NCBI GenBank assembly: GCA_049967655.1
Contig: JBMFSH010000002.1
Coordinates: 112,718 to 176,717, forward strand
Direction of reading: 5' to 3'
Length of the DNA stretch: 64,000 bases
Source: Acidobacteriota bacterium
GTDB lineage: Bacteria > Acidobacteriota > UBA4820 > DSQY01
Positions 8,743-26,419 of this stretch are shown here, piece by piece. Position numbers and translations under genes: made by a program. Each line of letters begins with the position of its first letter. Position 1 is the stretch's first letter. A model generated the notes under the pieces. The model did no database searches, was not told the origin of the DNA, and worked only from the letters and a program-made list of their open reading frames with translations.

Positions 8743-9434
8743 GCCCCAAAATCCACCAAATCCGCGGGGCGGACCGCGGGCGCGGCCCCGCGCCGAAGAA
8801 GCCCAAGGCGGGCGCCGCTCCAATCCAGCCGCCGAAGGACAGCTACGGCGGCCAGAGGCGCGGACCCGCCGTCAAGGACGCCATCGGCCTTCTGGAGCTG
8901 ACTTCCATCGCCAAGGGGATCGAGGCCACGGACCTGATGCTCAAGGCCTCCGACGTGGAACTCCTGGCCAGCCGGTCCATCTGCTCTGGCAAGTACATGG
9001 TTCTGGTGCGAGGCGACGTGGCCGCCTGCACCTCCTCCGTGGCCGCGGGCGAAGAGGTGGCTCGGGAGGCCGTGGCCGACTCCATCGTGATCCCCCACCT
9101 CCATCCCGAGATCTTTCCGGCCATCGCGCAGGCCTCGCTTGTGGAGGAGGTGGCGGCGCTGGGCATCCTTGAATCCTTCAACGTGGCCAGCCTGATCGAG
9201 GGCGCCGACACCGCCGTGAAGTCCTCCGAGGTCCACCTGATCGAGATCCGCCTGGCCATGGCCCTGGGGGGCAAGGCTTTCTGCGTGCTCACGGGACAAG
9301 TGGCCGCCGTGCGCTCGGCCGTGGAGGCCGGCAAATCCGTGATCGGAGCCAAGGGCGCATTGACCAACTGGGCGGTCATCCCCTCCCCCGATCGCGCGCT
9401 CGTCAAGGAAATTCTGGGTGGCCGCCTGATCTAG
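8739..9434 (+). CDS. Tandem-BMC shell protein, PduT-like, with ~45-aa basic/Pro-rich N-terminal extension
   Basis: AIGLLELTSIAKG..DLMLKA, ICSGKY...GDVAA and a second BMC domain (ALGILESF, LAMALGGK, GQVAAV). ATGA overlap with the PduS-like gene. Confidence 0.88.
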   Translation: MSPKIHQIRGADRGRGPAPKKPKAGAAPIQPPKDSYGGQRRGPAVKDAIGLLELTSIAKGIEATDLMLKASDVELLASRSICSGKYMVLVRGDVAACTSSVAAGEEVAREAVADSIVIPHLHPEIFPAIAQASLVEEVAALGILESFNVASLIEGADTAVKSSEVHLIEIRLAMALGGKAFCVLTGQVAAVRSAVEAGKSVIGAKGALTNWAVIPSPDRALVKEILGGRLI

Positions 9435-9461: not shown

Positions 9462-10814
9462 ATGAGATCGAGCACCGTCCCGAACGGACCAACGGCCGGG
9501 GAAGGCCGGGCCTTTCCCCTCCTCCTCGTAGCTCTGGCTCTTTTCTCGACCTGCGCCGCCGTTGCGGCCCAGACCCCTCCGCCCGCTCCTCCCGAGAAGC
9601 AGATCACGGGGGTCATCACATCGAGCGGCTTCACCCAGCTCTCCATCGCCATTCCGCCGAGCAAGACGGAGGCCACGACGGCCGTCCAGGCCCAGGAGAT
9701 CCTCTCCACGGTGACGGGCGATCTCGAGTTCTCGGGCTACTTCCAGCTCGTGGACCCCTCCCTTTTCGCCGGGATGAATCCGAACGACACCAAGGTCGAC
9801 TACGATGCATGGACGGGGATGAAGGCGGACTATCTCCTCCTCACCAACGTCTACGCCTCCGGGAACCAGCTCACCCTCGAAGGCCGGCTCTATGACATCA
9901 AGCGGAAGGAGATGGTGACGGGCAAGCGCATCAAGGGGCCCGCCCAGGACGTGCGGGTCCTGGCCCACAACCTCTCCTCCGTGATCCTCGACTACCTCTT
10001 CGGCGCTGGGAGCTTCCCCACCAGCCAGATCCTCTTCACGTCGCACCTGGCCACCACCGAGGACATCTTTCTCTGCGACTACGACGGGAAGAACATCCTC
10101 CGCCTCACGGCCATGGGCCAGCTCAACGTGACCCCCGACGTGAACCCCCAGGGCAACCTCATCGTCTTCACCTCCATCCTGAAAGACAGGCAGGAGATCT
10201 TCCTGCTGGACCGCCAGGGGCATCGGAGGAAGCTCTACGGCGACGGCGAGGGACTCAACTCCAACCCGCGGTTCTCCCACGACGGCAAGACCGTGGCCTT
10301 CTGCTCTTCCCGGTCAGGAAACCCCGACATCTGGACCATCGGCGTGGACGGCAAGAATTTGACCCGGCTCACCTTCTCCTACGCCATCGACACCGCGCCC
10401 TGCTGGTCGCCCGATGACCAGCACATCGCCTTTACCTCCGATCGCTCCGGCTCTCCCCAGATCTATATCATGGACAGGGACGGCGCCAACGTGCGGCGGT
10501 TGAGTCCACCGGGCAGCGGGCGTTGCGATCAGCCCATCTGGTCTCCCCGCGGCGACAAGATCGCCTACAGTTGCTTCAAGGACGGCCACTTCAACATCGC
10601 CGTGGCGGACCTGACCACCGGCGAGGTCACCTTTCTCACCCACGGGGAGGGAGACAACGAGGCGCCCTCCTGGTCGCCCGACGGGCGGTACCTGGCCTTC
10701 GCCAGCAACCGCTCCGGAAGCTATCAGATCTACATCATGCGTTGGGACGGGTCGGGAGTGACCCGAATCACAAACCAGCCGGACTGCTATTCGCCCTGCT
10801 GGTTCAAGGGCTAA
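9462..10814 (+). CDS. tolB: Tol-Pal beta-propeller protein TolB
   Basis: Signal peptide, TolB_N (DLEFSGYF, RLYD) and PD40 repeats (WSPD, FTSDRSGSPQIY, PSWSPDG). Confidence 0.88.
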   Translation: MRSSTVPNGPTAGEGRAFPLLLVALALFSTCAAVAAQTPPPAPPEKQITGVITSSGFTQLSIAIPPSKTEATTAVQAQEILSTVTGDLEFSGYFQLVDPSLFAGMNPNDTKVDYDAWTGMKADYLLLTNVYASGNQLTLEGRLYDIKRKEMVTGKRIKGPAQDVRVLAHNLSSVILDYLFGAGSFPTSQILFTSHLATTEDIFLCDYDGKNILRLTAMGQLNVTPDVNPQGNLIVFTSILKDRQEIFLLDRQGHRRKLYGDGEGLNSNPRFSHDGKTVAFCSSRSGNPDIWTIGVDGKNLTRLTFSYAIDTAPCWSPDDQHIAFTSDRSGSPQIYIMDRDGANVRRLSPPGSGRCDQPIWSPRGDKIAYSCFKDGHFNIAVADLTTGEVTFLTHGEGDNEAPSWSPDGRYLAFASNRSGSYQIYIMRWDGSGVTRITNQPDCYSPCWFKG

Positions 10815-10963: not shown

Positions 10964-12652
10964 GTGATTACCAGCCTACGCCTGAAGGACTACGCCCTGG
11001 TAGAGGAGCTCGTGTTGGAGCCGGGGGGCGAGCTGTGCCTTCTCACCGGTGAGACGGGCGCGGGGAAATCCATCCTGGTGGATGCCGTGGGACTGCTCGC
11101 TGGCAACCGCGCCGAGACCGAGATGGTGAGAACCGGAGCCGAGGAGGCCGTGATCGAAGGCTCCTTCCGGCCCTCGCTGAAGGCCGCCGAGGTGGCCGCG
11201 CTCCTGCGGGGCTGGGATCTGGCCTTCGAGGGCGAGCTGGTGATCCGGCGCCGGATTCAACGCTCGGGAAGAAACACCGTGACCCTCAACGGCGCCGCCA
11301 TCACGCTGGCGCAGCTCCGCGAACTGGGCGCCCTCCTCGTGGAGATCCACGGGCAGAACCAGAGCCAGACGCTCCTCGACGAGGAGACTCACCGCCGCAT
11401 CCTCGACGCGTTGCCCTCGGTCTCCCCGGCGGCCGACGCGCTTCGCGCCGCGTCCACGGATCTCTCCCAGGCCCTGTCCCGGTGGCGGACGCTCAGCCGC
11501 AGCGAGGCGGAGAGGGCCCAGCGGCTGGACCTCCTCCGCTTTCAGATGGAGGAGATCGACCGGGTGGCCCCGAGGGCGGGCGAAGAGGAGGAGCTGCTGG
11601 CCTCCAAGAGTCGGCTGCAGAACGTGGAGCGCATCGCCGAGGCGGTCGGCTCGCTTCACCAGCTCCTCGCCGAGGGCGACCCCTGTGTGCGGGTGCTGCT
11701 GTCGGAGGCGACCCGATGGATCGAGGCACTGAAGGAGGTGGATCCGGATTGGGGGGGCTACCTCGCCGACCTCCGCCAGGCCTCCGGCGTGCTCTCCAGC
11801 ATCGCCTCGGAGGCGGAGCGGACCGCCTCTACCATCTCGTTTGATCCCGAAGCCCTGGAGAGAACCCTTCAGCGCCTCGCCGACCTGGACCGCCTCAAAC
11901 GCAAGTACGGCCCGACCCTCGATGACCTCCTCGCTCACCGGGCGAGCATAGGAGAAGAGGCGGCCCAGCTCTCCGGCGGCGAAGCCACCGCCGACGGGGC
12001 TCGCGAGCGAATCGAGGCCTCCTTCGCGGAGTACATGAGGCGCGCCCTGGAGCTCAGCTCCGCCCGCAAAGTCGCCGCCCTCGAGTTCGGCGGCGCCGTC
12101 GAAGCGGAGCTCAAGCCCCTGGCCATGGAGCGGGCTCGCTTCCTGGTTGAACTGGTCCCGCGTCCCGTGGGCCGAGCGGAGGAGGCTACGGAGGCAGGCC
12201 TGGAAGAGGTCCGGTTCCTCTTTTCGAGCAACCCCGGCGTGCCCCCCAAGCCTCTGGCCAAGATCGCTTCGGGCGGAGAGCTGAGCCGGACGCTCCTCGC
12301 CCTCCTCACGGCTACGAGGCAATGGATGGGTACCGACACGATCATCTTCGACGAGGTGGACGCGGGCATCGGAGGGCGGCCCGCCGAACGGGTAGGCAGG
12401 CGGCTTCGCAGGCTGGCCGAGCACCACCAGGTGCTCTGCATCACCCACCTGCCGCAGATTGCCGCGTTCGCCCACCAGCACATCATCATCGAGAAGGTTC
12501 AAACATCCAGGCGCACTTGTGTCACCGCCAGGACCCTCGGACCCGAAGATCGAGAGAGGGAACTGGCCCGGATGCTCGCCGGGGAGAGGATCCAGGAGAC
12601 CGCCCTGCGCCACGCCAGAACCCTGCTCGCCTCGGCCTCCGCTGCGGAGTAG
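10964..12652 (+). CDS. recN: DNA repair protein RecN
   Basis: LTGETGAGKSI, EIHGQ, KIASGGELSR, IFDEVDAGIGG and CITHLPQIA motifs. Confidence 0.97.
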   Translation: MITSLRLKDYALVEELVLEPGGELCLLTGETGAGKSILVDAVGLLAGNRAETEMVRTGAEEAVIEGSFRPSLKAAEVAALLRGWDLAFEGELVIRRRIQRSGRNTVTLNGAAITLAQLRELGALLVEIHGQNQSQTLLDEETHRRILDALPSVSPAADALRAASTDLSQALSRWRTLSRSEAERAQRLDLLRFQMEEIDRVAPRAGEEEELLASKSRLQNVERIAEAVGSLHQLLAEGDPCVRVLLSEATRWIEALKEVDPDWGGYLADLRQASGVLSSIASEAERTASTISFDPEALERTLQRLADLDRLKRKYGPTLDDLLAHRASIGEEAAQLSGGEATADGARERIEASFAEYMRRALELSSARKVAALEFGGAVEAELKPLAMERARFLVELVPRPVGRAEEATEAGLEEVRFLFSSNPGVPPKPLAKIASGGELSRTLLALLTATRQWMGTDTIIFDEVDAGIGGRPAERVGRRLRRLAEHHQVLCITHLPQIAAFAHQHIIIEKVQTSRRTCVTARTLGPEDRERELARMLAGERIQETALRHARTLLASASAAE

Positions 12653-12704
12653 ACCGCGGCGCATTCCAGGAGACAGGGAACGTGAGGGCCATCACAAAAG
12701 CCCC

Positions 12705-12757
12705 TTCCAGCAAGCTTCCAGGCTTGCATCGCTGGAAACGCCGCAATACACTGTATT
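12705..12757. promoter_or_regulatory. Hairpin plus AT-rich palindrome upstream of the large secreted protein gene
   Basis: TTCCAGC (12705-11)...GCTGGAA (12731-37) stem, and AATACA-C-TGTATT (12745-57) in an AT-rich patch. Confidence 0.35.
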
Positions 12758-12922: not shown

Positions 12923-15900
12923 ATGGAACAGATCAAAGGACGAGCGGGCACGGAGTTTCGGTGTCTGCTGCTGGCGTTGGCTTGCCTTCCCCTTCTGCAC
13001 GCCATTCCCGCGCGCGCCTCGGGGTCAACGCCCCTTTCCGCCCAGGCGGGCCCGCGGCTGGAGAAGGCCTTTGGAGCTATCCCGCTGCATTTCGAGCCCA
13101 ACCGGGGGCAGAGCGATCCTCGGGTCGAGTATCTCGCCCGCGGGCGCGGCTTCGGCCTCTACCTCACCAGGAGGGGGGCGACCCTCGTCCTGAGCGCGCC
13201 GACAGGCGAGTCGGCGCGGGGCTCCCGGCGGCCTCCCCGGGATACCCGCCCGCATGTCCGCTCCACGATCCGCATCTCTCTGGAGGGCGGCAATGCGGCT
13301 CCCGCGCTGGTGGGCCTCGACCGCCTCGCCGGCACCTCCAGCTACTTCCTGGGGAACGACCCCTCGCGGTGGATTAGGGCCATCCCCACCTTCGGGCGCG
13401 TCGCCTGCAAGCAGGTCTACCCGGGCGTGGACGTGGTTTACTACGGGGCCGGAAGGGCCCTGGAATACGATTTCCAGCTTGCCGCGGGGACGAATCCCCG
13501 AACGATCAGGCTCCGGTACGACGACGGGGCGGGGAACCCCGTCCCCTTGCGGGTCAGCCCCAGCGGTGATCTCCTCCTCTCGACTCCCTTCGGTCGGCTC
13601 GTCCAGCACGCCCCCGCCGTCTTCCAAATGCGGAACGGGGAGAAGAACATGCTCTCCGGCCACTACGAGATCCTGGGACCGGGGCGCGTGGGACTGGTCG
13701 TGGCCAGTTACGACGCCTCTCGCCCGCTGACCATTGATCCAATTCTTAGCTACTCCACCTACCTGGGCGGCAGCGGCCAGGATCAGGCGGCGGGCATTGC
13801 GGTGGATTCCAACGGGAACGCCTACGTGACCGGCTCCACGCAGTCCACCGATTTCCCCCAGGCCAGCGATGCGCCGAGCGGAGGATGGGACGCCTTCGTG
13901 ACCAAGTTCTCTCCGGACGGCAAGAGCCTCCTCTACTCCATCTACTTCGGGGGGAAGGGGGATGACCTGGCCCACGCCATCGCCGTGGACTCCTCAGGTG
14001 ACGTGACCATCGCCGGCCAGACCACCTCCTACGACCTGCCCGTCCTCAAAGCGTTCCAGCCCACCCACGCGGGGACCGCGAGCTCTGCTAACGAGGATGC
14101 CTTCATCGCCGAGTTCGGCCCCTCCGGCACGGCGCTTCTCTATTCTTCTTACCTGGGCGGCTTCGGGGATGACGTGGCCACGGCCGTAGCCCTCGATGCC
14201 GCAGGCGATGCTTTCGTGACGGGGTACACCTATTCACCCGATTTCCCCGCCTCTTCGAACGCCGACCAGCCGGCCTACGGTGGCGCCGGCGACGGGTTCC
14301 TTTCCGAGGTGGCAGCGGGCGGGAACAAGCTCCTCTACTCCAGCTTCCTGGGGGGCGAAGCCTACGACGAGGGGCGGGGCATCGCGGTGAGCACCGACGG
14401 CCACGTGTTCGTCACGGGCGACACCTCGTCGGTCGCCTTCCCCATTCTCAACGCCTATCAGGCCCAGCTCGCTGGAGCCAGCGACGCCTTCGTCAGCGCC
14501 TTCGATTTCAGCGGTGCCACCGGCACCAGCCCCGGTCAGGTGATCTACTCCACCTACTTGGGGGGCGCCGGCAGCGACGCCGGCCTGGCCGTCGCCGCCG
14601 ACGCGAGCGGGGACGCTTACGTAACGGGCTACACCTATTCGACTCACTTTCCAACCAGCCCCGGCGCCTACCAGAGGGCCCTCACCGCCGGCCAATCGGC
14701 CGACGCCTTCGTAACGGAGTTTTCGCCGACGGGCGGCTCCCTGGTCTACTCCACCTACCTCGGGGGTTCGGCCTTTGATGCCGCCTACGCCATTGCCTTG
14801 GCCAGCGACGGAAGCGCCTGCGTGGCCGGGGATACCTATTCCACCGACTTCCCGGTGGCATTCCCCGTCCAGGCGGCCAACGCCAGCGCCTCCGCCGGCA
14901 ACAGCGACACCTTCGTGAGCAAGTTGTCGCCTTCTGGCTCGGCCCTCTCCTTCTCGACCTATCTAGGCGGAAGCGACACGGACCAGGGCCGCGCCATCGC
15001 CCTGGATTCCTCCAACAACATTTACGTGGCAGGGACCACCTACTCCAGCAACTTCCCGATGCAGAACGCCTTTCAGAGCGTCTCCCACGGAGCGGGGGAC
15101 GCCTTCGTTTCCAAGATCCTTCTGGCCGGCTGTACCCTCACCTGCACCGCCGTGGCCTCACCCGGCACCGGTGCTGCCCCTCTCCCCGTCACCTTTTCGG
15201 CTACCGCTACCCCGAGTAGCTGCGGAAGCGGCACCGTGGCCTACGACTGGAATTTCGGCGACGGCACACCCCACGCAAGCGCGCCGAATACCAGCCACAC
15301 CTACCTCCAGCCGGGGAGCTATACCTGGACGCTGACCGTGAGCCTCGACGGCACCACTTGCACCCAGAGCGGCTCCATCGTGGTCACCCCCGGCTGCACC
15401 GTGAGCTGCTCGGCCAACGCCACCCCCACGGCGGGTCCGGCGCCGCTGGCCGTGGCTCTCACCGCTTCCGCCTCCTCCTCGGACTGCGGAGGGGCCGCCA
15501 CCTACCTCTGGAACTTCGGTGACGGCTCGGCCGCTTCCACGGCGCAGAACCCGAGCCACACCTACCTTCAGCCGGGCACCTACACCTGGGCCGTGACGGC
15601 CACCATCGCCGGCAGCACCTGCACCCAGAGCGGCTCGGTGACGGCGCTGGCGACCCCGGGAAGCCTTTCGGGCATGGTGGCCATCTCCGCGGGAGACCAG
15701 TTCTTCTCCCTCGACGGGCCCGGCATCGTCTCGGGCACGGTCACGGCGGTGGACTCCGCGGGCAACGCGACGACGGCGCCTCTGTCGGGAGGCCACTTCT
15801 CCTTCTCGGGGCTCGCCCAGGGGAGCTACCAGCTCACCGCCACGGTGACCTACACGGACAACGTCCTCTACGACGCCGATCTGCTGAGCTACGGTTGTAC

Positions 15901-18643
15901 GGCGCCTTCGGGCATGCAGATTCAGAAGACGGCCATCTCTGCGCCGGTCGCCGTGGACACCTCCAATACCGCCTACGTGGTGGTCTCCTTCCCGCCGCCG
16001 CTGGTCATGATTCACGGCATGTTCGACTGCTACCAGAAGTGGTACGACCCCAACGCCTCGGACTCCAACGCCGCCCTTTACTGGGACAACGACGCGAGGG
16101 CCCACGGCCTCATCAGCTTCACGCCGAACTACGCCTGGTGGGGAGGGATCTCGAGCTGGCCCACCATGGCCGACGAGGTGGCCCAGCAGATCGGGCAGGA
16201 CCTCTCGGGACTGAGCTCCAGCGGCGCGGGAACGGGCTCCGCAGTCCCGCCCATCCCCACCGTCTGGATCGCCCACGACATGGGGGGCCTCGTGGCACGG
16301 GTGCTGGCCTCGGGGGACCACCGGAACGACGTGCTGGTGCAAAACGTCTGGAAGATTTACCTGCTCGGCGTGCCCAACAGCGGCACGAACCTCCAGCTGG
16401 CGGGGAGCGACAACGGCACCCTGAGCACCGACACCATCCTGCGGCGCTTCAACGCCGTCTATCCCGACTTCGGGAGCCTTCAGGGCCGGGTCTACGCCAT
16501 CGCCGGGGACAGCGGCCTGTGGGGGCTCCAGAACGATGACGGGCTGGTCTCTCTGGCCTCGGCCTTCACCATCTCGCGGGAGCTGTGCACCACGACCTTC
16601 GGCTACCCCGTCTGCCAGCAGTACCCCGCCGTCAGCTTCGCCGCCGGGACCGGCCACATCTTCGGTTACAGCCACGCCGATCTGGGCGGCCCCGCCTCGG
16701 CGAAGGCCATCCTGGAGGGGGTCATCCTGCCCGGCGTCGCGGCGCTGGCCAAGAGCGGGCCGCTTCCGGAACACGTGCCGGAGAGTCCCGCGGGCACTAC
16801 GGTCTGGGGCACCACCAGCCGCACGTCGGGAACCAAGAGAGGGCGCATCAAGGCCACCCTCAGCCGCTCGGAGGCGGGCCAGTCCTTCTCCTACCCGTTT
16901 ACCATCGGAGAGACCGACGGCATGGCCCTGCTGGCCACGGTCACCGACGGCTCCGCCGCTTTCCAACTGCTCGACCCCACGGGCCAGGTGGCGCAGAGCA
17001 GCCCCTCGGTGGACGGCCTCTTCTCCTTCTCCACCCTCAACCCGGCCCCGGGCGCCTGGACGCTCGTCGTAACCCCCGGCGGCTCGGGGGTCTCCTTCAC
17101 CGCCACGGCGCAGGAGGACAGCCCCTTCGGCATCCGCGGGAGCCTGGATGAGAGTGCCTATCTCCCCAACTCCACGGCGGTCCTGAGGGTGGACCTCGAG
17201 GGCAGCCTCAAGGTGGTGCCCGCCTCGGTGACGGCCAGCATCTACGACGGCTACGACAACCTGATCGAGACCGTTCCTCTTTATGACGACGGCCAGCACG
17301 ACGACGGCGCTCCGGGCGACGGCGCCTACGGTGCCCTCCTCGCCGCCTTCACGTCGCCCGGCTCTTACCCCGTCGTCTTCACCGCCACCGGCTCCTACCA
17401 GGGCGAGGCCTTCTCCCGTCTCGCCTTCGCCACCCTGACGGTGGTGCCCTCCACCCACCTGCTGACGGGCGCCTTCGCCCTTTCGCCCGTGAGCCAGAGC
17501 GGCGGGGGCCCCACGGACGCCATCCAGATGACCGCCGGCGTCAACCTGCCGGCGGCGGGGAGCTACGCCCTCTCGGCGGACCTGCTGGATGCGGGGGGCC
17601 TCTTCGTGGCCCACGCCTCCACGGCGCTCACGGCCACGGCGGCGGGCCTCACAACCGCGACCCTGGTCTTCCCGCTGGACGGCGCCACGTGCAGCCAGCT
17701 CGATGCCCCGCTGACGGTGGCCGGCCTTCAGGTCCTGGATGGAACCACCCTGACGCCCGAGGACGTCTGGGGTTCTCCCATCTACACCCCTGCCTACCCC
17801 TCCGGCACCTTCTCCTGCCAGAGCGGTACCCCCGAGCCCACGCCCACGGCTCTCCAGCCCTCCCAGGCCGTGACGGGCACCTCCATCAGCCTGCTGGTGG
17901 CGGGCACCGGCTTCCAGGGCGGCGCCACGCTCACCTTCGATTCGGGCATTCAGGTCAACAAGGTCATCGAGCTCTCGCAGAACCTCCTTTCGGCCTCCGT
18001 CACCGTCCTTTCGAACGCGGCTGCGGGCGGCCACACGCTGACCGTCACCAACCCCAACGGCACTTCGGGGAACCTGGTCTCGGCCCTGACGGTCACGCCG
18101 AACCAGCCGCCCGCCGTCACCCTCTTGACCCCCGCCAGCGGAACGAGCTACTTCAGCTCCTCCCCCACCCAGGTGAGCGTCTCGGCCTCCGCGAGCGACG
18201 ACATCGGAGTCACCCAGGTGGTCTTCCTGCTGGACGGAGCGCCCGAGGCCAGCGTGAGCCAGTTCCCGTTCATCTGGAGCTTTCCCTCCTCCGTTCTGAC
18301 CCACGGCGCCCATACCCTGACGGCCGTGGCCTACGACACCAGCGGCCTGACCGCCCAGGCCTCCGTGACCATCTACAAGGACCCGCCCACCGTCACGGCC
18401 ATCAGCAAGCTGATCAACCCCTTCCGCCTGAAGGTCACGGGGACCAACTTCCTCCCGGGCCTCTCGGTCACCATCGGGAGTGACACAACCCCCTGGCCCG
18501 GCGTGACCGTCAAATCGGACACCAAGCTGATCCTCAAGAAGGGGGCCCGCCTCAAGGCGCTCTTCCCGAAGGGGCAGGCCGTGTCCATCCGCATCGCCTA
18601 CCCCGATGGCACGCAAGGAACGGCCAGCTACACCAGGCCCTGA
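12923..18643 (+). CDS. Large secreted protein (1906 aa): SBBP beta-propeller repeats, 2 PKD domains, alpha/beta-hydrolase domain, Ig-like domains
   Basis: GGAGG RBS before ATG 12923 and a signal peptide ending IPARA. FEPNRGQ and YPGVDVVY N-terminal domain, repeated YSTYLGG/DAFV units, two WNFGDG PKD domains, MIHG...AHDMGGLVAR...LLGVPNSG...NDDGLV...SH hydrolase, LYDDGQHDDGAPGDG motif and Ig-like tail. Confidence 0.92.
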   Translation: MEQIKGRAGTEFRCLLLALACLPLLHAIPARASGSTPLSAQAGPRLEKAFGAIPLHFEPNRGQSDPRVEYLARGRGFGLYLTRRGATLVLSAPTGESARGSRRPPRDTRPHVRSTIRISLEGGNAAPALVGLDRLAGTSSYFLGNDPSRWIRAIPTFGRVACKQVYPGVDVVYYGAGRALEYDFQLAAGTNPRTIRLRYDDGAGNPVPLRVSPSGDLLLSTPFGRLVQHAPAVFQMRNGEKNMLSGHYEILGPGRVGLVVASYDASRPLTIDPILSYSTYLGGSGQDQAAGIAVDSNGNAYVTGSTQSTDFPQASDAPSGGWDAFVTKFSPDGKSLLYSIYFGGKGDDLAHAIAVDSSGDVTIAGQTTSYDLPVLKAFQPTHAGTASSANEDAFIAEFGPSGTALLYSSYLGGFGDDVATAVALDAAGDAFVTGYTYSPDFPASSNADQPAYGGAGDGFLSEVAAGGNKLLYSSFLGGEAYDEGRGIAVSTDGHVFVTGDTSSVAFPILNAYQAQLAGASDAFVSAFDFSGATGTSPGQVIYSTYLGGAGSDAGLAVAADASGDAYVTGYTYSTHFPTSPGAYQRALTAGQSADAFVTEFSPTGGSLVYSTYLGGSAFDAAYAIALASDGSACVAGDTYSTDFPVAFPVQAANASASAGNSDTFVSKLSPSGSALSFSTYLGGSDTDQGRAIALDSSNNIYVAGTTYSSNFPMQNAFQSVSHGAGDAFVSKILLAGCTLTCTAVASPGTGAAPLPVTFSATATPSSCGSGTVAYDWNFGDGTPHASAPNTSHTYLQPGSYTWTLTVSLDGTTCTQSGSIVVTPGCTVSCSANATPTAGPAPLAVALTASASSSDCGGAATYLWNFGDGSAASTAQNPSHTYLQPGTYTWAVTATIAGSTCTQSGSVTALATPGSLSGMVAISAGDQFFSLDGPGIVSGTVTAVDSAGNATTAPLSGGHFSFSGLAQGSYQLTATVTYTDNVLYDADLLSYGCTAPSGMQIQKTAISAPVAVDTSNTAYVVVSFPPPLVMIHGMFDCYQKWYDPNASDSNAALYWDNDARAHGLISFTPNYAWWGGISSWPTMADEVAQQIGQDLSGLSSSGAGTGSAVPPIPTVWIAHDMGGLVARVLASGDHRNDVLVQNVWKIYLLGVPNSGTNLQLAGSDNGTLSTDTILRRFNAVYPDFGSLQGRVYAIAGDSGLWGLQNDDGLVSLASAFTISRELCTTTFGYPVCQQYPAVSFAAGTGHIFGYSHADLGGPASAKAILEGVILPGVAALAKSGPLPEHVPESPAGTTVWGTTSRTSGTKRGRIKATLSRSEAGQSFSYPFTIGETDGMALLATVTDGSAAFQLLDPTGQVAQSSPSVDGLFSFSTLNPAPGAWTLVVTPGGSGVSFTATAQEDSPFGIRGSLDESAYLPNSTAVLRVDLEGSLKVVPASVTASIYDGYDNLIETVPLYDDGQHDDGAPGDGAYGALLAAFTSPGSYPVVFTATGSYQGEAFSRLAFATLTVVPSTHLLTGAFALSPVSQSGGGPTDAIQMTAGVNLPAAGSYALSADLLDAGGLFVAHASTALTATAAGLTTATLVFPLDGATCSQLDAPLTVAGLQVLDGTTLTPEDVWGSPIYTPAYPSGTFSCQSGTPEPTPTALQPSQAVTGTSISLLVAGTGFQGGATLTFDSGIQVNKVIELSQNLLSASVTVLSNAAAGGHTLTVTNPNGTSGNLVSALTVTPNQPPAVTLLTPASGTSYFSSSPTQVSVSASASDDIGVTQVVFLLDGAPEASVSQFPFIWSFPSSVLTHGAHTLTAVAYDTSGLTAQASVTIYKDPPTVTAISKLINPFRLKVTGTNFLPGLSVTIGSDTTPWPGVTVKSDTKLILKKGARLKALFPKGQAVSIRIAYPDGTQGTASYTRP
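13750..15120 (+). repeat. Intragenic SBBP (beta-propeller) repeats, about 7 units
   Basis: Recurrent YSTYLGGxGxD..A.AVD..G.AYVTG.T.S.DFP....DAFV units. Boundaries approximate. Confidence 0.8.
15131..15660 (+). repeat. Tandem PKD-domain duplication
   Basis: Two copies of C..C.A.A.P..G.APL.V...WNFGDG...SHTYLQPG.YTW....G.TCTQSGS. The DNA segments agccacacctacct and tgcacccagagcggctc occur in both. Boundaries approximate. Confidence 0.85.
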
Positions 18644-18668
18644 GTCTTCGTAATCTCACCGATGCAGA

Positions 18669-18698
18669 GGGGCGGCCTCCAGGCCGCCCCCCTTCTTC
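18669..18698 (+). terminator. Probable intrinsic terminator after the large secreted protein gene
   Basis: GGGGCGGCC-TCCA-GGCCGCCCC hairpin followed by ccttcttc. Confidence 0.6.
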
Positions 18699-18712
18699 AT
18701 CCCCCCGAAGGT

Positions 18713-18864
18713 GTCACCCTGAGATCACCCCCCAGAGGGCTCCCCGGAAAGGGCCTCAGGCGTGGAACCCGCAGAAACCGCCGTGAAGGCTCCGCTGGCG
18801 TTTTGCCTAGACCAGCGCCTGAGGTCCTTCAGGGGCACTGCTTCGAAGGGGCCTTCAGGATGAC
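18713..18864. repeat. ~150-nt rod-like imperfect palindrome (REP/MITE-like element or structured RNA)
   Basis: Nested inverted repeats: GTCACCCTGA/TCAGGATGAC, AAGGGCCTCAGGCG/CGCCTGAGGTCCTT and GCAGAAACCGCC/GGCGTTTTGC. Confidence 0.6.
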
Positions 18865-18900
18865 GGGAAAGCGGACGGGCGGATCGGGAGCGGATCTCCC

Positions 18901-18936
18901 TTGACAAGACGTGGGGGGGGGGGGGGGTGGTAGCCT
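18901..18936 (+). promoter_or_regulatory. Sigma70-type promoter with a G15 tract in the spacer
   Basis: Perfect TTGACA at 18901-06, G15 at 18913-27, extended -10 TG-G-TAGCCT at 18928-36. Spacer is 24 nt. Confidence 0.65.
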
Positions 18937-18962
18937 GGAGCCGTCTTGAAAGGAGGTGTTCG

Positions 18963-19040
18963 ATGGGCACGATCCTCTTCCTCATCACGGTCCTGGTCTG
19001 TTCTCCTGCCGGCGGCACTATCTGGGGCACGACGACCTGA
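18963..19040 (+). CDS. 25-aa small peptide MGTILFLITVLVCSPAGGTIWGTTT
   Basis: Below the ORF-track length cut-off. RBS AAAGGAGGTG (18949-58), upstream promoter, downstream hairpin, GC-rich third positions, and a 9/12 match to a motif in the neighbouring large protein. Confidence 0.8.
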   Translation: MGTILFLITVLVCSPAGGTIWGTTT

Positions 19041-19057
19041 ACGGCACCGGGATCCGA

Positions 19058-19093
19058 AGCCCAGGGGGGCCCAGGCCGGGTTTCCCTGGGGCT
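19058..19093. terminator. Hairpin between the convergent peptide and cyclase genes
   Basis: AGCCCAGGG-GGGCCC-aggcc-GGGTTT-CCCTGGG(G)CT stem-loop with G-U pairs on the + strand. Confidence 0.5.
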
Positions 19094-19106
19094 CTTCCCT
19101 CCCGTG

Positions 19107-22100
19107 TCATCCCGCAGGCCCCTCGGCCCGAAGCGCCCGCACCTCCGGGAGAGCGGCCAGGGCTTTTCGGATGGCTGGGTCGCTGTTTCGCGCTTCCACC
19201 TCTTTCAACAGATCCAGCGCGGCTTTCCGCCAAAAAGCGGCGCTTCTCGCCTTTCCGCTGTTCATCGCGGCTAGCCGCCGGAGCATGCGGTACCTGATTC
19301 CCATGAGGCCCCGGTCCAGTTTGGGACCATAGGGCCTCAGGAGAGCCATCAGAGAGGCAAGGTACTCTTTGTCGTTGCTGGCGATGGCGACTTGGGCCAC
19401 CGTGAGCAAGAGCGGGGCGACTTTCAAGACCGAGCGATGCTTCGCTACCTCTGGTAGGAGCCGCCGTGCGATCGCGGCAGCAACTTCATGGCGGCCTGCC
19501 TCCCATAGAGAGCGAACCAGGGTCTCCCCCACCTCGGCCGTGAGCCAGAGGGTCCCGGTCAGGGAGGCCTCCTCCAGACATCGCTCCAGGGCCTCCCTCG
19601 CATCTTCGAAGCCAGTGTCTCCCATGAGATGGAGCCAGAGAGCCCGTTGCGCGCGAAAGCCGATGGACCAGGCCTTTTCAGTGTGAACGAGCTCCGCCGC
19701 CACGACCGGGCTGCCCTCCTCCATGGCGGCAAGGGCCAGCTCTGGCCGATGCAGGTGGTTCGCCAGCGCCACGATTTCATTGAGGCAGGCGAGAGCCTCT
19801 CCCGTGTTGCCTCCCTGCACGTGAAGGCGCATGGAATCGGTCTGATTCTCCAGGGCCATTTGCAGATGCCCGCTCACAGCGTGAAGAATGCCTGAAGTAT
19901 GGAGGTTCGCGGCACAATAATGCTGCATACCGAAATGAAGCGCTGTTGCGAAAGCCAATCTGCTCGCCTCCATAGCTTCATCCCACTGGCCGAGCATGGT
20001 CTGGTAGAGAGCGCGGTTCGACAGCAGAACCACATACAACTGACGGTAGCCAAACTGTCTGGCAATTACTGTAGCTTCCTCTACCATACCGAGCGCCTTC
20101 CGGTAGCGCCCCTCCTCGAAATGAACCTGGGCAAGGTTGATCGAAAGGGAGACCAGGTTCGGCCGAAGGGCGTAGCGCTCCGCCGTCCGGCGCGCTTTCC
20201 GGTAGGCGGAAGCCGCCGCCCCGAGATTGCCCCAACCATGGTAGTGGCACATGCCTTGGTTCATCAGCGCGTACACCAAGGAGCTACCCTCAGCCAGCTT
20301 CCTAGCGAGACGCTCCGCCTGTTTGAACTGCTCCATGGCCTCGTCCATGCGGCCTGACATGGCCAACGGAACGGCCGAATCCAAGAGGATCCGGCATCGA
20401 AGCTGGTCGTCCCCCAGCTTCTTCGCTAGGCTCATGGCCCGGTCATATTCCTGGATGGACGCATTGAGCTCGCCACGGCTTCGATGACATCCTGCCACGT
20501 GCATGCGTGCATCCACGAGCTCGGGGCATAGTGTGCCGGTCTCCTGGATGATCTGGCGGCATCTGGCTTCGGTCTCGTCCAATCTTCCCAAGTCCTTGCT
20601 TGTCTTGGCGAGCTCCATTAGGCCTCGACGATACTGTTCGTCCTCGCCGGCCGAGACGCCGTGCTTCTCTCGCAGTCGGATGTATCGCTCCAATAGGTTG
20701 AACGCCGCGCCGTTGTCGTAGCGGTTGCGGGCGTCCTGGGCGGCGAGCCAGAGGTAGTGGGCGGCTTTCACGTCGTCGCCGGCGGCCTCGAAGTGGTGGG
20801 CTAGGTAGGGCCACGTCCGGCGGTCGCCGGCGGCCTGCTCCTCCAGGAAAGCGGCGACCTGGGCGTGCACGGCCCGCTTGACCGAGAAGGTGAGCGACTC
20901 GTAGAGGGCATCGCGCAGGAGCGAGTCGGAGAAGGTGGCGTAAGGGCGGCGCCCCGAGGCGTCCAGGCGCAGGAGCCCCTTCTCCGAGAGGGCCCTCACC
21001 CGCCCCTCGACGTCAAGCGCCTTCAGCCCCAGGACCCTGGCCAGCAGGCTGACGGAGAAGGAGGCGCCTAGCACGGAAGCCGTCTTCAGAAGCTGGCGCT
21101 CCTGATCGGGAAGGCCCTCGACCTGGGTCAGGAGCACGCCCTCGAGGGTGTCCGGGAAGGCCGAGGCCGTCAGGCGGTCCTCGTCCGCCTCGAGGAGCCC
21201 GGAGGGGCCCCGGGCCAGAAGACCCTGGTGGGCCAGCACGGCCAGCACCTGCTGGATGAACTTGGGGTTGCCCCGCGTCTTCTCCATGACGAAGCGGGTG
21301 AAGGCCTCGGGGGGCGCGGCCATGCCGCCGGCCCGCATCAGGAACTCGCGCGCCTCCTCCTCGCTCAGCGGTTCGAGGCGGACCGTCCGAAGGCCGGCCA
21401 CCGCCTCTCCCACCGACGCGGGGGCGCTGGTGCGAAAGGCCAGGAGAAGCTTGAGAGGGGCCTGCTCCAACTCGGCCAGAAGGGCCGCCAGGAACTCCAG
21501 CGAGGCGGGATCGGCGTGCTCCAGGTGGTCCACGAAGAGGCCGTACGGCTCCTGCGCGGCCTGACGCAGGAAGAGCCGGGCCAGCATGGCGAAGGCGGCC
21601 TCCTTGCGCTCCTTGGCAGAGAGGGCCTTGACGGCGGCCGTCTCCTCCATGGCGACACCCAGGAGGGGCGCCAGGAGGCAGAGGAAATCCGGGTCCTCGT
21701 GAGCCATCCCCTGCCGGAGGGCCTCGAGGCGCAGGGCCTCGCCGGAGGTGCGGCTCACGCCCAGAGAGGAGAAGAGCACCGGCGTCCAGGCCGAGAGGTA
21801 GCTCTCGCTGCTGTAGGGGACGAGCGGCACCGTGATGTGGCGGATTCCCGCCGCATCCAGCCCCAGCCCGAGCCGGTGCAGGAGGGCGCTCTTCCCGACC
21901 CCGGCCTCCCCCGTCACGGCCAGCGCCAGAGGCTTCGACGGATCGGCCAGGAGCGGTCCCAGCTCCTTGAGCAGCTCCTCCCGCCCCACGTACTCCGCCA
22001 AGCGCTCCTCCTCCGCCTGCCGCTCGCCCTCGGGCCTGAAGACGCGCACCCGCTCGCCGATGCCCTTGACGAAGACGGGGTCCAGCTCTCGGAAGACAAG

Positions 22101-23291
22101 CGCCCCGTCGGCCTCTGCGGCCACCTCCCTGGCGACCAGGACCCGCCAGGCGTGGGCGTTCTGCATCAGTCGGGCCGCCAGGTTGATGCCGGCGCCCATG
22201 ACCGTGTACTCCCGCCGCTCCTCGCAGCCCACGAAGGCCGCGAAGAGCCCGGAGACGGTGATCCCGATGCGGACCTCGGTGAGGAGTTCTCGCAGAGCGG
22301 CAGAGCCGACCAGCTCCAGGGCCGCCCGGCAGGCCATCTCCTCCTGGCGCTCCAGGGCGTAGGGAACGCCGAAGCAGCAGATCGCCTTGCTCCCCTTGTC
22401 GCCCATGTCCAGCTTGTTCACGTGGCCGCCGTACTTTCGAACCGTTTCGGCGATGATCCGGTAGACCCGGCGGCAGCGGTCCACCGCTTCGGAGTCGAGG
22501 TCGTAGTCGATGCCCCGGAAGGCGAGGAACAGGACCGCCGTCCGCCGGTGTTCGGCGACGGTCTGGCTGCGGCCTGTCCCAGCCCTGGCTCGGACGAAGG
22601 CTGGGAGGAAGGCTTCGAGACTCTCCCGGCTGGGTAACGGCGGGCTGGCGTTGGCGGAAGGTTCGGGAGGCCGGTGAAGCCCATCGAAGCCCGCGAGAAG
22701 CAGGAAGCCGTCGCCGGCCTCCTCCACCCGGCAGCCGATCGGGAGGCCGGCCCGGCAGGAAGGCCCCAGGAGGATCCGCCCCCGCGAGGCGCGGTGCTCC
22801 GCCTCCGCCGCCTCGTCCAGGGCCGTGCCGGCGGCGAAGTAGTCGCGTCCGACCTCCTGGTCACCCACCGTACCGATCAGGAGGGAGCCGATGGAGATGC
22901 CCGTCTTCATGGCGAGCGAGAACTCGCCCCCGCGGGTGGGAATGGACTGGAAACGGCCGATCTCCTCGTGCATCCGGAGTGCGGCCCGCAGCGCCCCCGA
23001 CAGGTCCGGAGGGAAGAATAGCGTCATCGCATCGCCACCGAATCGGAGAACGTCTCCGCCCTCCTCGTGGACGATCGCGATCATGGCCGCGAAGAAGTCG
23101 TTCAGAACGCGGGTGAGCTCCTCCGCCCCCTCCCTCCCGATGGCCGCCAGCCGCTCGGTCATGGCCGTAAAGCCGGCCAGGTCAGCGAAGAGCAGGCATC
23201 CCTCCGTCCGCTGGGCACCCCCCGTGGAGCCCAGGAGAGGCCACAGACTCCTCGGCACGAAGGCGGTCAGATCCCGTCTGAAATTGCTCAT
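19107..23291 (-). CDS. Tandem class III adenylate cyclase - STAND NTPase - TPR protein (soluble AC/ADCY10-like architecture)
   Basis: C1: LFADLAGFT..RFGGDA. C2: VNKLDMGDKG..EYTVMGAGINLAARLM. YVGREE, Walker A GEAGVGKS, Walker B FVDHLEHAD, TRGNP, then a TPR-like helical C-terminus. Confidence 0.92.
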   Translation of the reverse strand: MSNFRRDLTAFVPRSLWPLLGSTGGAQRTEGCLLFADLAGFTAMTERLAAIGREGAEELTRVLNDFFAAMIAIVHEEGGDVLRFGGDAMTLFFPPDLSGALRAALRMHEEIGRFQSIPTRGGEFSLAMKTGISIGSLLIGTVGDQEVGRDYFAAGTALDEAAEAEHRASRGRILLGPSCRAGLPIGCRVEEAGDGFLLLAGFDGLHRPPEPSANASPPLPSRESLEAFLPAFVRARAGTGRSQTVAEHRRTAVLFLAFRGIDYDLDSEAVDRCRRVYRIIAETVRKYGGHVNKLDMGDKGSKAICCFGVPYALERQEEMACRAALELVGSAALRELLTEVRIGITVSGLFAAFVGCEERREYTVMGAGINLAARLMQNAHAWRVLVAREVAAEADGALVFRELDPVFVKGIGERVRVFRPEGERQAEEERLAEYVGREELLKELGPLLADPSKPLALAVTGEAGVGKSALLHRLGLGLDAAGIRHITVPLVPYSSESYLSAWTPVLFSSLGVSRTSGEALRLEALRQGMAHEDPDFLCLLAPLLGVAMEETAAVKALSAKERKEAAFAMLARLFLRQAAQEPYGLFVDHLEHADPASLEFLAALLAELEQAPLKLLLAFRTSAPASVGEAVAGLRTVRLEPLSEEEAREFLMRAGGMAAPPEAFTRFVMEKTRGNPKFIQQVLAVLAHQGLLARGPSGLLEADEDRLTASAFPDTLEGVLLTQVEGLPDQERQLLKTASVLGASFSVSLLARVLGLKALDVEGRVRALSEKGLLRLDASGRRPYATFSDSLLRDALYESLTFSVKRAVHAQVAAFLEEQAAGDRRTWPYLAHHFEAAGDDVKAAHYLWLAAQDARNRYDNGAAFNLLERYIRLREKHGVSAGEDEQYRRGLMELAKTSKDLGRLDETEARCRQIIQETGTLCPELVDARMHVAGCHRSRGELNASIQEYDRAMSLAKKLGDDQLRCRILLDSAVPLAMSGRMDEAMEQFKQAERLARKLAEGSSLVYALMNQGMCHYHGWGNLGAAASAYRKARRTAERYALRPNLVSLSINLAQVHFEEGRYRKALGMVEEATVIARQFGYRQLYVVLLSNRALYQTMLGQWDEAMEASRLAFATALHFGMQHYCAANLHTSGILHAVSGHLQMALENQTDSMRLHVQGGNTGEALACLNEIVALANHLHRPELALAAMEEGSPVVAAELVHTEKAWSIGFRAQRALWLHLMGDTGFEDAREALERCLEEASLTGTLWLTAEVGETLVRSLWEAGRHEVAAAIARRLLPEVAKHRSVLKVAPLLLTVAQVAIASNDKEYLASLMALLRPYGPKLDRGLMGIRYRMLRRLAAMNSGKARSAAFWRKAALDLLKEVEARNSDPAIRKALAALPEVRALRAEGPAG

Positions 23292-23433
23292 GAGCGCCCC
23301 CGAAGCAGTCCTAATCAGGTTCCGACGGCCCGCGCCGCCGGCTTCAGGGCCTCAGGATGGACCAGGAAGCGCCCCACTGTCCACGGTGGTGTGCACGGGC
23401 CACGCAAAGTTGGGTGGACCTCGTGGAACCCGG

Positions 23434-24219
23434 TCAGGGATTGGGCGGCGGAGGGGATCCCGAGACCGATTGCGTGTAGGCCAGCAGGAACCGCCTGGCC
23501 TCGGGGTTCATTTCCAGAAAGACGATTCCGTAACCGGCCCTGGTCTTCCGCACCACGCGGGCCTTGAATTCCACGACCTTGAGCGGTACCGTTCCCGGCA
23601 TCCCCACGCGCAGGCTGACCATGGCCTTGTGCGGAAGCTCTTCAACCAGCGCCACTTGGGCTCCGGTCAAAGAGATGTCGCGGAGCACCCCGCGCAGCTT
23701 CTGCCCTCCGCCCGACAGCAGGCATGCGGCCTGGAGGTTGCGCCGCGGCGCCCTTCGCAGGTCCCAGCTCGCGGAGCCTTCATCGGTCTGGCTTTCTACC
23801 AAGCCCGGGGGAGGCGGCCCCGGGGGCGGCTTGCGGGGGGTTTCCGCATGGAGGTTGCCCAGGAGATGGACCAGCGAGCTTTCCAGCTGGTTCCTCCGGA
23901 CGGGCTTGGTCAGGACGATGGTGTGGCACCCCGTCGACGCCTCCACGTTCATCCCCTCTTCCGTGAGAATGAGGACGGAGAGGTCACCAAAGGCGGCCTC
24001 GGAGCGGAGCGCGCTCAGCATCCGAAAGCCCCCGACGGTGGGAAGCGAGAAGTCGATCACCAGAAGGTCGGGGGGGCCCGAGAGATACATGGCCTGGATG
24101 GCCGACATGTCGCTCGCGAAGACCTGGCAATTCAGGCGCGCGCCGCCCAGCCCCTCGAAGGGATCGGTGAAAAGCGACAACTCCGCTTCGGCCAGAACGG
24201 CCGACACTCGGTACGACAT
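23434..24219 (-). CDS. Receiver-like domain + PilZ domain protein
   Basis: PDLLVIDFSLP..GG and LTKPV (receiver-like). RRAPR and DISLTG are intact PilZ c-di-GMP-binding motifs. Confidence 0.82.
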   Translation of the reverse strand: MSYRVSAVLAEAELSLFTDPFEGLGGARLNCQVFASDMSAIQAMYLSGPPDLLVIDFSLPTVGGFRMLSALRSEAAFGDLSVLILTEEGMNVEASTGCHTIVLTKPVRRNQLESSLVHLLGNLHAETPRKPPPGPPPPGLVESQTDEGSASWDLRRAPRRNLQAACLLSGGGQKLRGVLRDISLTGAQVALVEELPHKAMVSLRVGMPGTVPLKVVEFKARVVRKTRAGYGIVFLEMNPEARRFLLAYTQSVSGSPPPPNP

Positions 24220-25105: not shown

Positions 25106-25518
25106 CAGCGTGGCTCCGCCGGCGGGGGCGGTTCGTTACGGCGCTCCAGTTCGCCAGTACCGGGCGAGGGGGACTGCGGCGGCGCCACCGGCGGTTGGGA
25201 GCCGGTTGCGGGGAGGGCATCGCGCCGCTCCTGATCCGCGGGAGAGGAGACCGGAGCGGTCGCCGTTTCGGCGGGCGGCCGATAGGAGGGCGCGGGAAGG
25301 GCGCCGCTGGGACGCTCGGCGGGCGGCTCCACCGTGGCCGTGCGCTTGATGTCCTCCACCTCCCGCTCGATGGTCTCCTGCAACTCCTGTGTGGCGCGCT
25401 TGAACTCGCGTATGGCCCGTCCCAGTGACTTGCCCAGCTCGGGAAGCTTCTGGGGCCCGAAGAGGAGGAGGGCAACGACCAGGATGAGTAGGAGTTCGCC
25501 GGAGCCGATGTCAAACAT
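25105..25518 (-). CDS. tatB: TatA/TatB family subunit (long tail, TatB-like)
   Basis: [40 protein letters not shown]. Directly upstream of tatC. Confidence 0.85.
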
Positions 25519-26338
25519 GGCGTTCCTCCAGAGGTCCATGGCTCAAGCTTCCGGAGCGGAAGCCCTCCAGGTCCAGCGTGATGAAGCGAAATCCCAACTC
25601 CTTCATGTGGCGGCAGAGGGCCGCCCTGAAAGCCGGTTCCAGGAGCTGGTTCATCCCCTCTTCTTCCACCTCGATACGGGCCGCGTCGTCCAGCAGGCGG
25701 ACGCGAGCCTGGCGCAATCCGTGGGCCTTCAGAAACTGCTCGGCCCTCTCCACGCGCGACAGGTCCCCCAAAAGGATGGGCCGGCCCGCCGGGAATCGCG
25801 AGGAGAGGCACGCCGCAGCCGGCTTGTCCCAGGTCTCCAGTCCGAGCTGTTTGGATCGCTCCCGCACCTCCGCCTTGGTGAGGCCCGCCTCCATGAGCGG
25901 TGCCCGCATCCCCCGCTCCTCGGCGGCCTTCATGCCGGGCCTCCAGTCCCCCACGTCGTCGGCGATGGCCCCGAACAGGAGCCAGCTCAACCCCTGCCCC
26001 GACGCCAGCTCCTCCATCCGGGCAAAGAGTTCGCTCTTGCAGTGGTAGCATCGGAAGGTGTCGTTGGCCACGAAGGCGGGATTGTCCATCTCCCGGGTTT
26101 GGACCACCTGATGCCGGATCCCCCGCCGCCGGGCGAAGACAACGGCGGCCTCCAGCTCGTCGCGGGGAAGGGTGGGCGAGTCGGCCGTGACGCCCATGCA
26201 ACGCTCACCCAGGACGCCGGCGGCCTCCACGAGGAGCAGGGCCGAATCGGCGCCACCGGAAAAGGCCACGAGCGCCCCCTCCCTGAACTGCTCCAGGATC
26301 GCGCGAAGCCGGGCCACCTTCTCTTCCAGCGCATTCAC
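25511..26338 (-). CDS. larE: ATP-dependent sacrificial sulfur transferase LarE family
   Basis: PP-loop [31 protein letters not shown] and DLEGFRSGS motifs. GTG start inferred. Confidence 0.88.
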
Positions 26339-26419
26339 GGGGGGCTCACCTCGATTCTCCAGACAGTTGTCCACTGTAGTCCAGATGAGGCGGGAGGACA
26401 ACGCTTGCCCGCCCAAAGC

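Follow-up and report, generated by a model that had tools for sequence, protein, structure and literature searches.

The 64,000-nucleotide stretch analysed here, called the window throughout, comes from an Acidobacteriota bacterium of the UBA4820 lineage. At 12923..24219 it holds a gene for a large secreted protein and a gene for a 25-residue peptide, both on the plus strand and convergent with a minus-strand gene whose product joins adenylyl cyclase domains to a STAND NTPase and a TPR array. The large protein and the peptide have a short motif in common, and in related genomes this motif is found together with the cyclase. We conclude that the system is real and conserved, that it is undescribed in the searchable literature and that it is a variant of peptide-TPR signalling. 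In the reading that we prefer, to which sequence comparisons lead us to give a probability of about 60%, a released motif peptide would be imported, bind the TPR array and set the level of cyclic AMP (cAMP), and cAMP would feed back through CRP on the gene of the large protein. The parts present in the sequence are an intact cyclase active site, Walker A and B motifs, a TPR array, a secreted carrier of the motif, a CRP box, and genes for CRP and Opp.

A preliminary description had proposed such a module. The parts that it claimed are all found where it placed them, on the same strands and with carrier and peptide convergent with the cyclase; its observation holds and is stronger than first noted, and its interpretation is supported in part.

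The motif, its carriers and the cyclase

The motif carrier (12923..18643, plus strand) is a protein of 1906 residues, described here from Pfam and structure models, with a signal peptide visible in the sequence. Pfam finds DUF7948, six SBBP repeats, two PKD domains, Ig domains and choice-of-anchor X. The order along the protein is DUF7948, the SBBP propeller, the two PKD domains, an alpha/beta-hydrolase-fold domain, the motif linker, beta-sandwiches, choice-of-anchor X, Ig and a lineage-specific C-terminal domain. The motif, P-x-[A/S]-P-x-G-x-x-x-W-G-T, occupies residues 1286-1297 (16778..16813, plus strand), a candidate cryptic ligand in a predicted disordered linker: between the hydrolase fold and the beta-sandwich the segment is modelled as coil, with a predicted local distance difference test score (pLDDT) below 50. 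Its P, P, G, W, G and T are invariant in all 35 clade A carrier homologues.

The free peptide is encoded by a small open reading frame (ORF) at 18963..19040 on the plus strand, behind a strong ribosome binding site (AGGAGG, 18951-18956). It consists of 13 mostly hydrophobic residues followed by the motif up to the stop codon. Nine of its 12 C-terminal residues are identical to the large protein, a level reached in 0 of 2000 shuffles, and this is the best non-self match among about 6.27 million positions of the genome. In this genome the motif occurs only in the 1906-residue protein and the small ORF. The motif pattern of the preliminary description is likewise confined to these two places when all six frames of the 3.14-Mb genome are searched, and its claim of a common motif is borne out beyond chance.

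The pairing with the cyclase was studied in 401 Acidobacteriota genomes, using a 20-position profile for the motif and counting only long cyclase-plus-STAND matches as cyclase-positive. The profile finds the motif in 19 genomes, all from the order of the UBA4820 lineage, and in none of 372 others. Of the order's 29 genomes, motif and cyclase are found together in 19 and are both missing from nine; one (73% complete) has the cyclase only and none has the motif only. Inside three genera the pattern is patchy, and a within-genus shuffle gives p = 0.007; this value is optimistic, as the genes are linked and the genomes are kin, and it mainly restates the linkage because linked genes are gained and lost together.

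The arrangement is also kept. The cyclase lies tail-to-tail with the large gene in G001, G002, G003, G005, G009, G013, G024, G025 and G026, and in G025 four motif-bearing giant genes stand in a row beside a single cyclase. Further, the clade B cyclases, sister to clade A (support 100 for A plus B), are tail-to-tail with carriers of an unrelated family, BNR/sortilin-type propeller proteins with TIG domains, that bear the same motif. We examined 28 clade A/B loci, of which 26 have at least 1200 nt downstream, and 24 of these 26 have a motif match on the opposite strand. It should be noted that most of these loci had served to build the profile and that some are duplicates; L240, L241 and L243 are independent metagenome cases. 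The two misses show a variant motif. The finding that the preliminary description had named as a refutation, cyclase orthologues without the large protein nearby, is therefore not what is seen: they keep it.

The motif is portable, not structural. It is present in two unrelated families of giant secreted carriers and is absent from four homologous carrier rows (three proteins), which keep a Ser nucleophile in the hydrolase-fold domain. In G007 an unrelated secreted protein of 176 residues, encoded directly upstream of a clade B carrier and without a match in the ESM Atlas, contains the motif twice, once right behind the predicted signal cleavage site and again near the C-terminus. The first copy is thus placed at a predicted mature N-terminus, which suggests that the active form would begin at Ala/Ser-Pro. 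A GH18 chitinase encoded near the G007 cyclase also shows a resemblance to the motif, which was set aside as probably fortuitous. A loose DNA pattern of the motif, run over 41 genomes, gave counts at the control level and served for leads only; three of these (L162, L163 and L166) showed no coherent gene in the frames looked at and were dropped.

The hydrolase-fold domain (window about 16270-16680) keeps the His and Asp of the triad and has Asp at the position of the nucleophile Ser. Asp stands there in at least 90% of the motif-bearing homologues, and the four Ser rows are those without the motif. From these residues the domain would be either a pseudo-enzyme or a hydrolase with an Asp nucleophile. 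The fold closest to this region is 6WPX, the pro-form of the lipase BlEst2 with C-terminal propeptide domains, identified as such in the accessible part of PMC10816834. The last 90 residues of the large protein (window 18368-18640) match 14 other places in the genome, on G000 C3, C9, C10, C11, C14, C15, C18, C20, C23, C28, C29, C63 and C101, and have no Pfam match; judged from this distribution they are likely a lineage-specific C-terminal sorting or surface domain.

The candidate receptor, the CRP boxes and the surroundings

The candidate receptor (19107..23291, minus strand; 1394 residues) was assigned from Pfam, alignments and a structure model as a twin class III adenylyl cyclase, resembling soluble adenylyl cyclase (sAC), followed by a STAND NTPase and a TPR array. 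In Pfam there are two cyclase domains, with AAA_16 and TPR_12 above the cut-off, and neither the Pfam nor the model results contain a membrane segment. The best solved relative of the cyclase is human sAC (E 2e-29). D37, D87, K299, T363, N370 and R374, which align with the catalytic residues of human sAC, show no change in 20 of 20 homologues, and the same holds for Walker A (G464/G466/K467) and D588. These conserved residues make it likely that the protein is active as an adenylyl cyclase and that its STAND switch works. The bicarbonate site of human sAC includes K95 and R176; the corresponding positions here are Arg and Ala, and the site is not as in the human enzyme.

The TPR array is modelled with a pLDDT of 94. 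LGN/Pins TPR domains whose structures were solved with peptides are its top structural matches and the only ones by sequence. N1011, N1052 and N1092 occupy successive repeats; all three are unchanged in 19 clade A rows, and N1011 is unchanged in 30 of 30 rows over clades A and B. Compared with three relatives from the genus, residues 1-800 are 80-99% identical per 100 residues, while the TPR residues 1001-1394 are only 39-57% identical.

According to the preliminary description adjacency was the only link to the cyclase. This has been overtaken, as CRP boxes now tie the cAMP output to the large gene. For 35 partner starts, namely 33 carriers of a W-G motif (clades A, B or L120), the small gene of G007 and one clade C gene, the 400 nt upstream were searched for the CRP palindrome, one mismatch being allowed. 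The box is found in 23 of these 35 upstream regions and in 5 of 1152 long ORFs of the window's own genome; the start positions used are approximate and the relatives are not independent. The G005 partner, without a box in this test, has one on a re-check. Upstream of the cyclases it is found in 0 of 14 cases. It is therefore likely, from these sites, that cAMP drives transcription of the carrier gene via CRP.

In the window the box, with one mismatch to TGTGA-N6-TCACA, lies at 12681..12696 and is kept in all four genomes of the genus; conservation starts at the box. For the window alone, two matches are seen where 0.82 are expected, which is not significant. A putative weak sigma-70 promoter of the large gene (TTGCAT, 17 nt, TACACT; 12724..12752, plus strand) was read from the sequence and is conserved. 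The box lies about 71 nt upstream of the putative transcription start, which we take to be the position of a class I activator. Genes for a CRP-family protein and for an Opp system are present in the genome, and Opp genes adjoin the locus in L037, L039, L041 and L053. Elsewhere in the genome, at G000:C2:85190-88863 (L320), a CRP gene is transcribed away from the gene of a secreted protein and that of a second cyclase, of the membrane type, and the interval between them contains a CRP-box-like site.

The peptide gene appears to have its own promoter, again read from the sequence: TTGACA and TAGCCT with a 24-nt spacer that contains a run of 15 G (18901..18936, plus strand). Consensus promoter scans call neither this promoter, whose spacer is too long for the scan, nor that of the large gene. 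Among relatives the spacer varies with the length of the G run (24, 19 and 15 nt), and such runs assemble unreliably. DNA contigs of four sequencing runs span the peptide region in other strains and break near the G run; one of them replaces about 1100 nt of the TPR region. The G run may act as a phase switch. Long G runs are also seen in other sigma-70-like promoter spacers, on G000 C47 (minus strand), C6:58085 and C11:62481 and at L161:5240-5270 and L242:12190-12240, hinting that phase variation by such spacers could be a habit of the lineage.

The peptide ORF and the cyclase gene are 66 nt apart and convergent. A GC-rich hairpin (19043..19108, z = -2.5) reaches from the peptide ORF to the cyclase stop, and a terminator-like hairpin lies 3' of the large gene (18669..18690, plus strand; one found and 0.5 expected in shuffles). 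A structured repeat of about 140-150 nt is seen at 18729-18866 and also at L035:11250-12660; in G003 several copies of it flank a small GIY-YIG-like ORF, where other genomes have the peptide gene.

The ORF list places recN (10964-12652, plus strand) and tatC (25105-24347, minus strand) on the two sides of the locus. The preliminary description had spoken of an accessory block. With regard to its patchy presence across the order this is right; it does not fit the GC content, which is like that of the rest of the window, nor the fixed place between recN and tatC in all four genomes of the genus. The same description had included the next minus-strand gene (23434..24219), which encodes a 261-residue protein with a PilZ match and a sub-threshold receiver in Pfam. 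This gene adjoins the cyclase in the window's genus only, its orthologues are on other contigs in genus g3 and it occurs in the cyclase-less G008 and G016; we removed it from the module. In the flanks (8739-9434, 9462-10814 and 25511-28987) lookalikes of a microcompartment shell protein, TolB, a LarE-like ATP-dependent sulfur transferase and an MMPL/RND-type exporter were noted by eye.

Outside clades A and B related layouts are seen. In L120 (Holophagales) the cyclase is surrounded by three propeller genes. In the homologous linker all three products bear one and the same W-G motif, which differs from that of clades A and B, and two of the genes are preceded by CRP boxes. The layout recurs in L261 and L313 with other W-G variants, and the motif type changes with the cyclase lineage. 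Propeller-type partners with lineage-specific linker motifs and CRP boxes lie at L120:4994-23227, L261:12118-16527, L313:3676-8571 and L126:12603-16658. In the cyclase tree L120 and L126 are joined by long branches, and their sister position is unsure. These partners are candidates for a wider ligand code, as judged from their sequences. G034:C26, considered as an extension of L120, is a separate locus and was rejected.

Some further neighbours of distant cyclases were noted. In L164, L168 and L169, of a third cyclase clade, the middle of the large secreted partners resembles a C25-type cysteine peptidase by eye and has no Pfam match. A conserved gene of 1100-1200 residues is directly upstream of the metagenome cyclases L273, L274, L278, L282, L285, L289, L299, L301-L304, L311, L316 and L318, and the one that was tested has a clostripain (C11) domain. 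At L112:15286-23196 four tandem paralogues of about 640 residues with a type IX secretion tail are convergent with a cyclase of another lineage.

The proposed circuit and its alternatives

In the circuit that we propose, the carrier would be exported and cut just before Ala/Ser-Pro to give a peptide of about 10-12 residues, and the small ORF would give the same end once its hydrophobic leader is removed. Opp would import the peptide, which would then sit in the Asn-lined groove of the TPR array, flip the STAND module and free the cyclase from autoinhibition; an inhibitory sign is also possible. Finally, cAMP and CRP would raise transcription of the carrier, a positive loop that could report the processing of surface proteins or the density of kin. 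As for the free peptide, it would act as a booster or decoy that is optional and possibly phase-variable.

This circuit can be extended to a tethered-ligand system, in which giant surface proteins of several unrelated families contain a cryptic, transplantable peptide, an NLR-like cyclase is gated by this peptide after its release by a cut, cAMP and CRP make more carrier, a phase-variable micropeptide tunes the response and the fast-changing TPR array discriminates kin. We hold the extended version tentatively, at a little under even odds.

Several observations weigh against the proposed circuit. The free peptide, put forward in the preliminary description as the ligand gene, is present in only 5 of the 19 motif-positive genomes and missing from 14, and at the loci of G003 and L240 it is absent; as a core ligand gene it has to be given up. 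The six free ORFs are 25-26 codons long, begin with a hydrophobic stretch and have the motif ahead of the stop; they are in G000 (the window's genome), G001, G002, G017 and, twice, G021. Codon changes in the peptide ORF are mostly non-synonymous (4 of 5 in comparison with G001), a pattern that does not speak for purifying selection on it. In the fixed CRP test 12 of the 35 partner regions, some of them short or array-internal, have no box, and in the window's genus Opp is not adjacent to the locus. No conserved protease gene is found at the loci seen. The homologues of the small G007 protein in G019 and G023 do not have the motif, and in the clade B carriers the residues behind it resemble the start of a propeller blade.

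On the side of the receptor, the motif is much more stable within the genus than the TPR array, and a model with one ligand leaves this unexplained. Further, the LGN-like matches are generic (sequence E 0.001, with many unrelated TPR proteins scoring alike), and they therefore indicate a peptide-type groove, not the ligand. The third cyclase clade has convergent, large, TIG-ended partners with a CRP box and a common but fainter motif of like spacing that lacks the W. At the cyclases of Chloroflexota, Calditrichota and other phyla there is no profile match of at least 13 bits, and the system as defined is therefore lineage-limited; repeated Trp peptides are found in 0 of 49 large neighbours of other-phylum cyclases.

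Some of these points would be accommodated if the cyclase senses something else and the link is one of output: cAMP and CRP would activate the adjacent surface gene, the motif would be read outside the cytoplasm by a protease, a chaperone or a surface receptor, and the peptide would be a competitor. CRP boxes by themselves could account for the genes staying together, the motif lies in a linker behind a hydrolase domain whose closest fold is the pro-lipase 6WPX with its C-terminal propeptide domains, and the greater divergence of the TPR array than of the motif is as expected. However, CRP acts at a distance and linkage is then needless, and at the loci seen the genes are accompanied by neither a dedicated protease nor an outer receptor. 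The peptide ORFs are located between the ends of cyclase and carrier, or at the carrier end where the contig stops, and follow the motif flavour of their own clade; together with the shift of motif type with the cyclase lineage this argues against a link of output alone. We regard the output-only explanation as unlikely, though it is the one that stands up best next to the proposed circuit.

Alternatively the TPR array could read the motif in the cytoplasm, before export or after entry from another cell, and cAMP would report stalled secretion or contact with non-kin, with no extracellular pool of peptide. The receptor without a membrane segment is consistent with this, as is the leader of the small peptide, which with 13 mostly hydrophobic residues is short, has no basic residues and by sequence looks unlike a classical Sec signal; the fast change of the TPR array would suit recognition of non-self variants. 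Against it, the G007 motif follows directly after a classical signal-peptidase site, pointing to an exported and processed end, and Opp genes adjoin several loci. Such surveillance appears distinctly improbable. An antiphage sensor of the Avs/NLR type, with the TPR array reading a phage protein next to unrelated cargo, is very improbable: STAND-TPR architecture and a hypervariable sensor are typical of defence STANDs (bioRxiv 2026.01.04.697583, accessible part), but PADLOC yields only partial matches to the cyclase domain (PycC), the neighbours are housekeeping and surface genes, and the motif pairing and the CRP boxes are left unexplained.

Comparison with known systems

A literature search returned no description of the system; subscription papers and supplements were outside its scope, and the family could be listed in the STAND clade tables of bioRxiv 2026.01.04.697583. 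With Avs and the defence STAND-TPR proteins it has in common a STAND module and a variable TPR sensor that gate an N-terminal effector. The ligands of Avs are phage proteins, whereas the candidate ligand here is self-encoded and secreted, and PADLOC gives no full-length defence-model match, only the partial PycC-domain matches, that would place the protein in Avs or Pycsar. If the proposed circuit is correct, a STAND protein reads a self-made secreted signal rather than a phage protein.

In the cAMP-Clr cascade of Sinorhizobium, which has smc02178 as a target, genes without a known function are switched on by cAMP together with a CRP-like regulator; as far as the accessible part of the source goes (PMC5498481), Clr targets are dispensable for signal perception, while here the target is proposed to be the carrier of the signal. 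Kaur et al. 2020 predicted FxSxx-COOH / RxD peptide-processing systems with an AP-ATPase-TPR protein and sometimes a CRP-like factor (PMC7159879, in part), and the link that they predict between a processed peptide, a STAND-TPR protein and at times a CRP-like factor resembles the present one. The locus differs from the FxSxx-COOH and TOMM systems in that no zincin metallopeptidase, radical SAM/SPASM or TOMM enzyme genes are among its genes and the precursor is a giant secreted protein. The match to TIGR03903, a TOMM kinase/cyclase fusion (E 1e-49), scores 169 bits against a cut-off of 705.75 and there is no kinase domain; the protein is not a member.

The bacterial cyclase-STAND proteins, which we take to be the SWACOS clade, have the layout of full-length human sAC (ADCY10, sACfl): twin class III domains with the same catalytic residues, then a P-loop STAND region and helical repeats. 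The full-length enzyme is less active than the truncated form, which has been ascribed to autoinhibition, and in the accessible part of that source no ligand is named for the C-terminal region of sAC (PMC12802110). Here the bicarbonate-site residues differ and a candidate ligand is encoded next door. If the circuit is real, the STAND-TPR half of a protein of the sAC type would here have its first candidate ligand, as far as the literature search found, and a widespread orphan architecture, present also in the human enzyme, becomes a directly testable receptor-ligand pair.

The closest parallel in operation is with the RRNPP systems (Rap-Phr, NprR-NprX, PlcR-PapR, Rgg-SHP), like which the locus would work if the model is right. 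These are defined by a propeptide of 10-100 residues, Sec or SHP-type export, a cytoplasmic receptor of 250-500 residues with TPRs, adjacent genes and regulation of the receptor by binding of the peptide to its TPRs (PMC10075063, accessible part). The 25-residue ORF is within the size range, the receptor has TPRs and the genes are directly adjacent. In contrast, the receptor has 1394 residues, outside the range, with a STAND switch and an enzymatic output, and the host is not one of the Firmicutes. The conserved copy of the candidate ligand lies inside a giant secreted protein, and the small gene is not always present. If the proposed circuit holds, cytoplasmic peptide signalling reaches beyond Firmicutes, and short ligands are hidden in giant surface proteins, where annotation has overlooked them.

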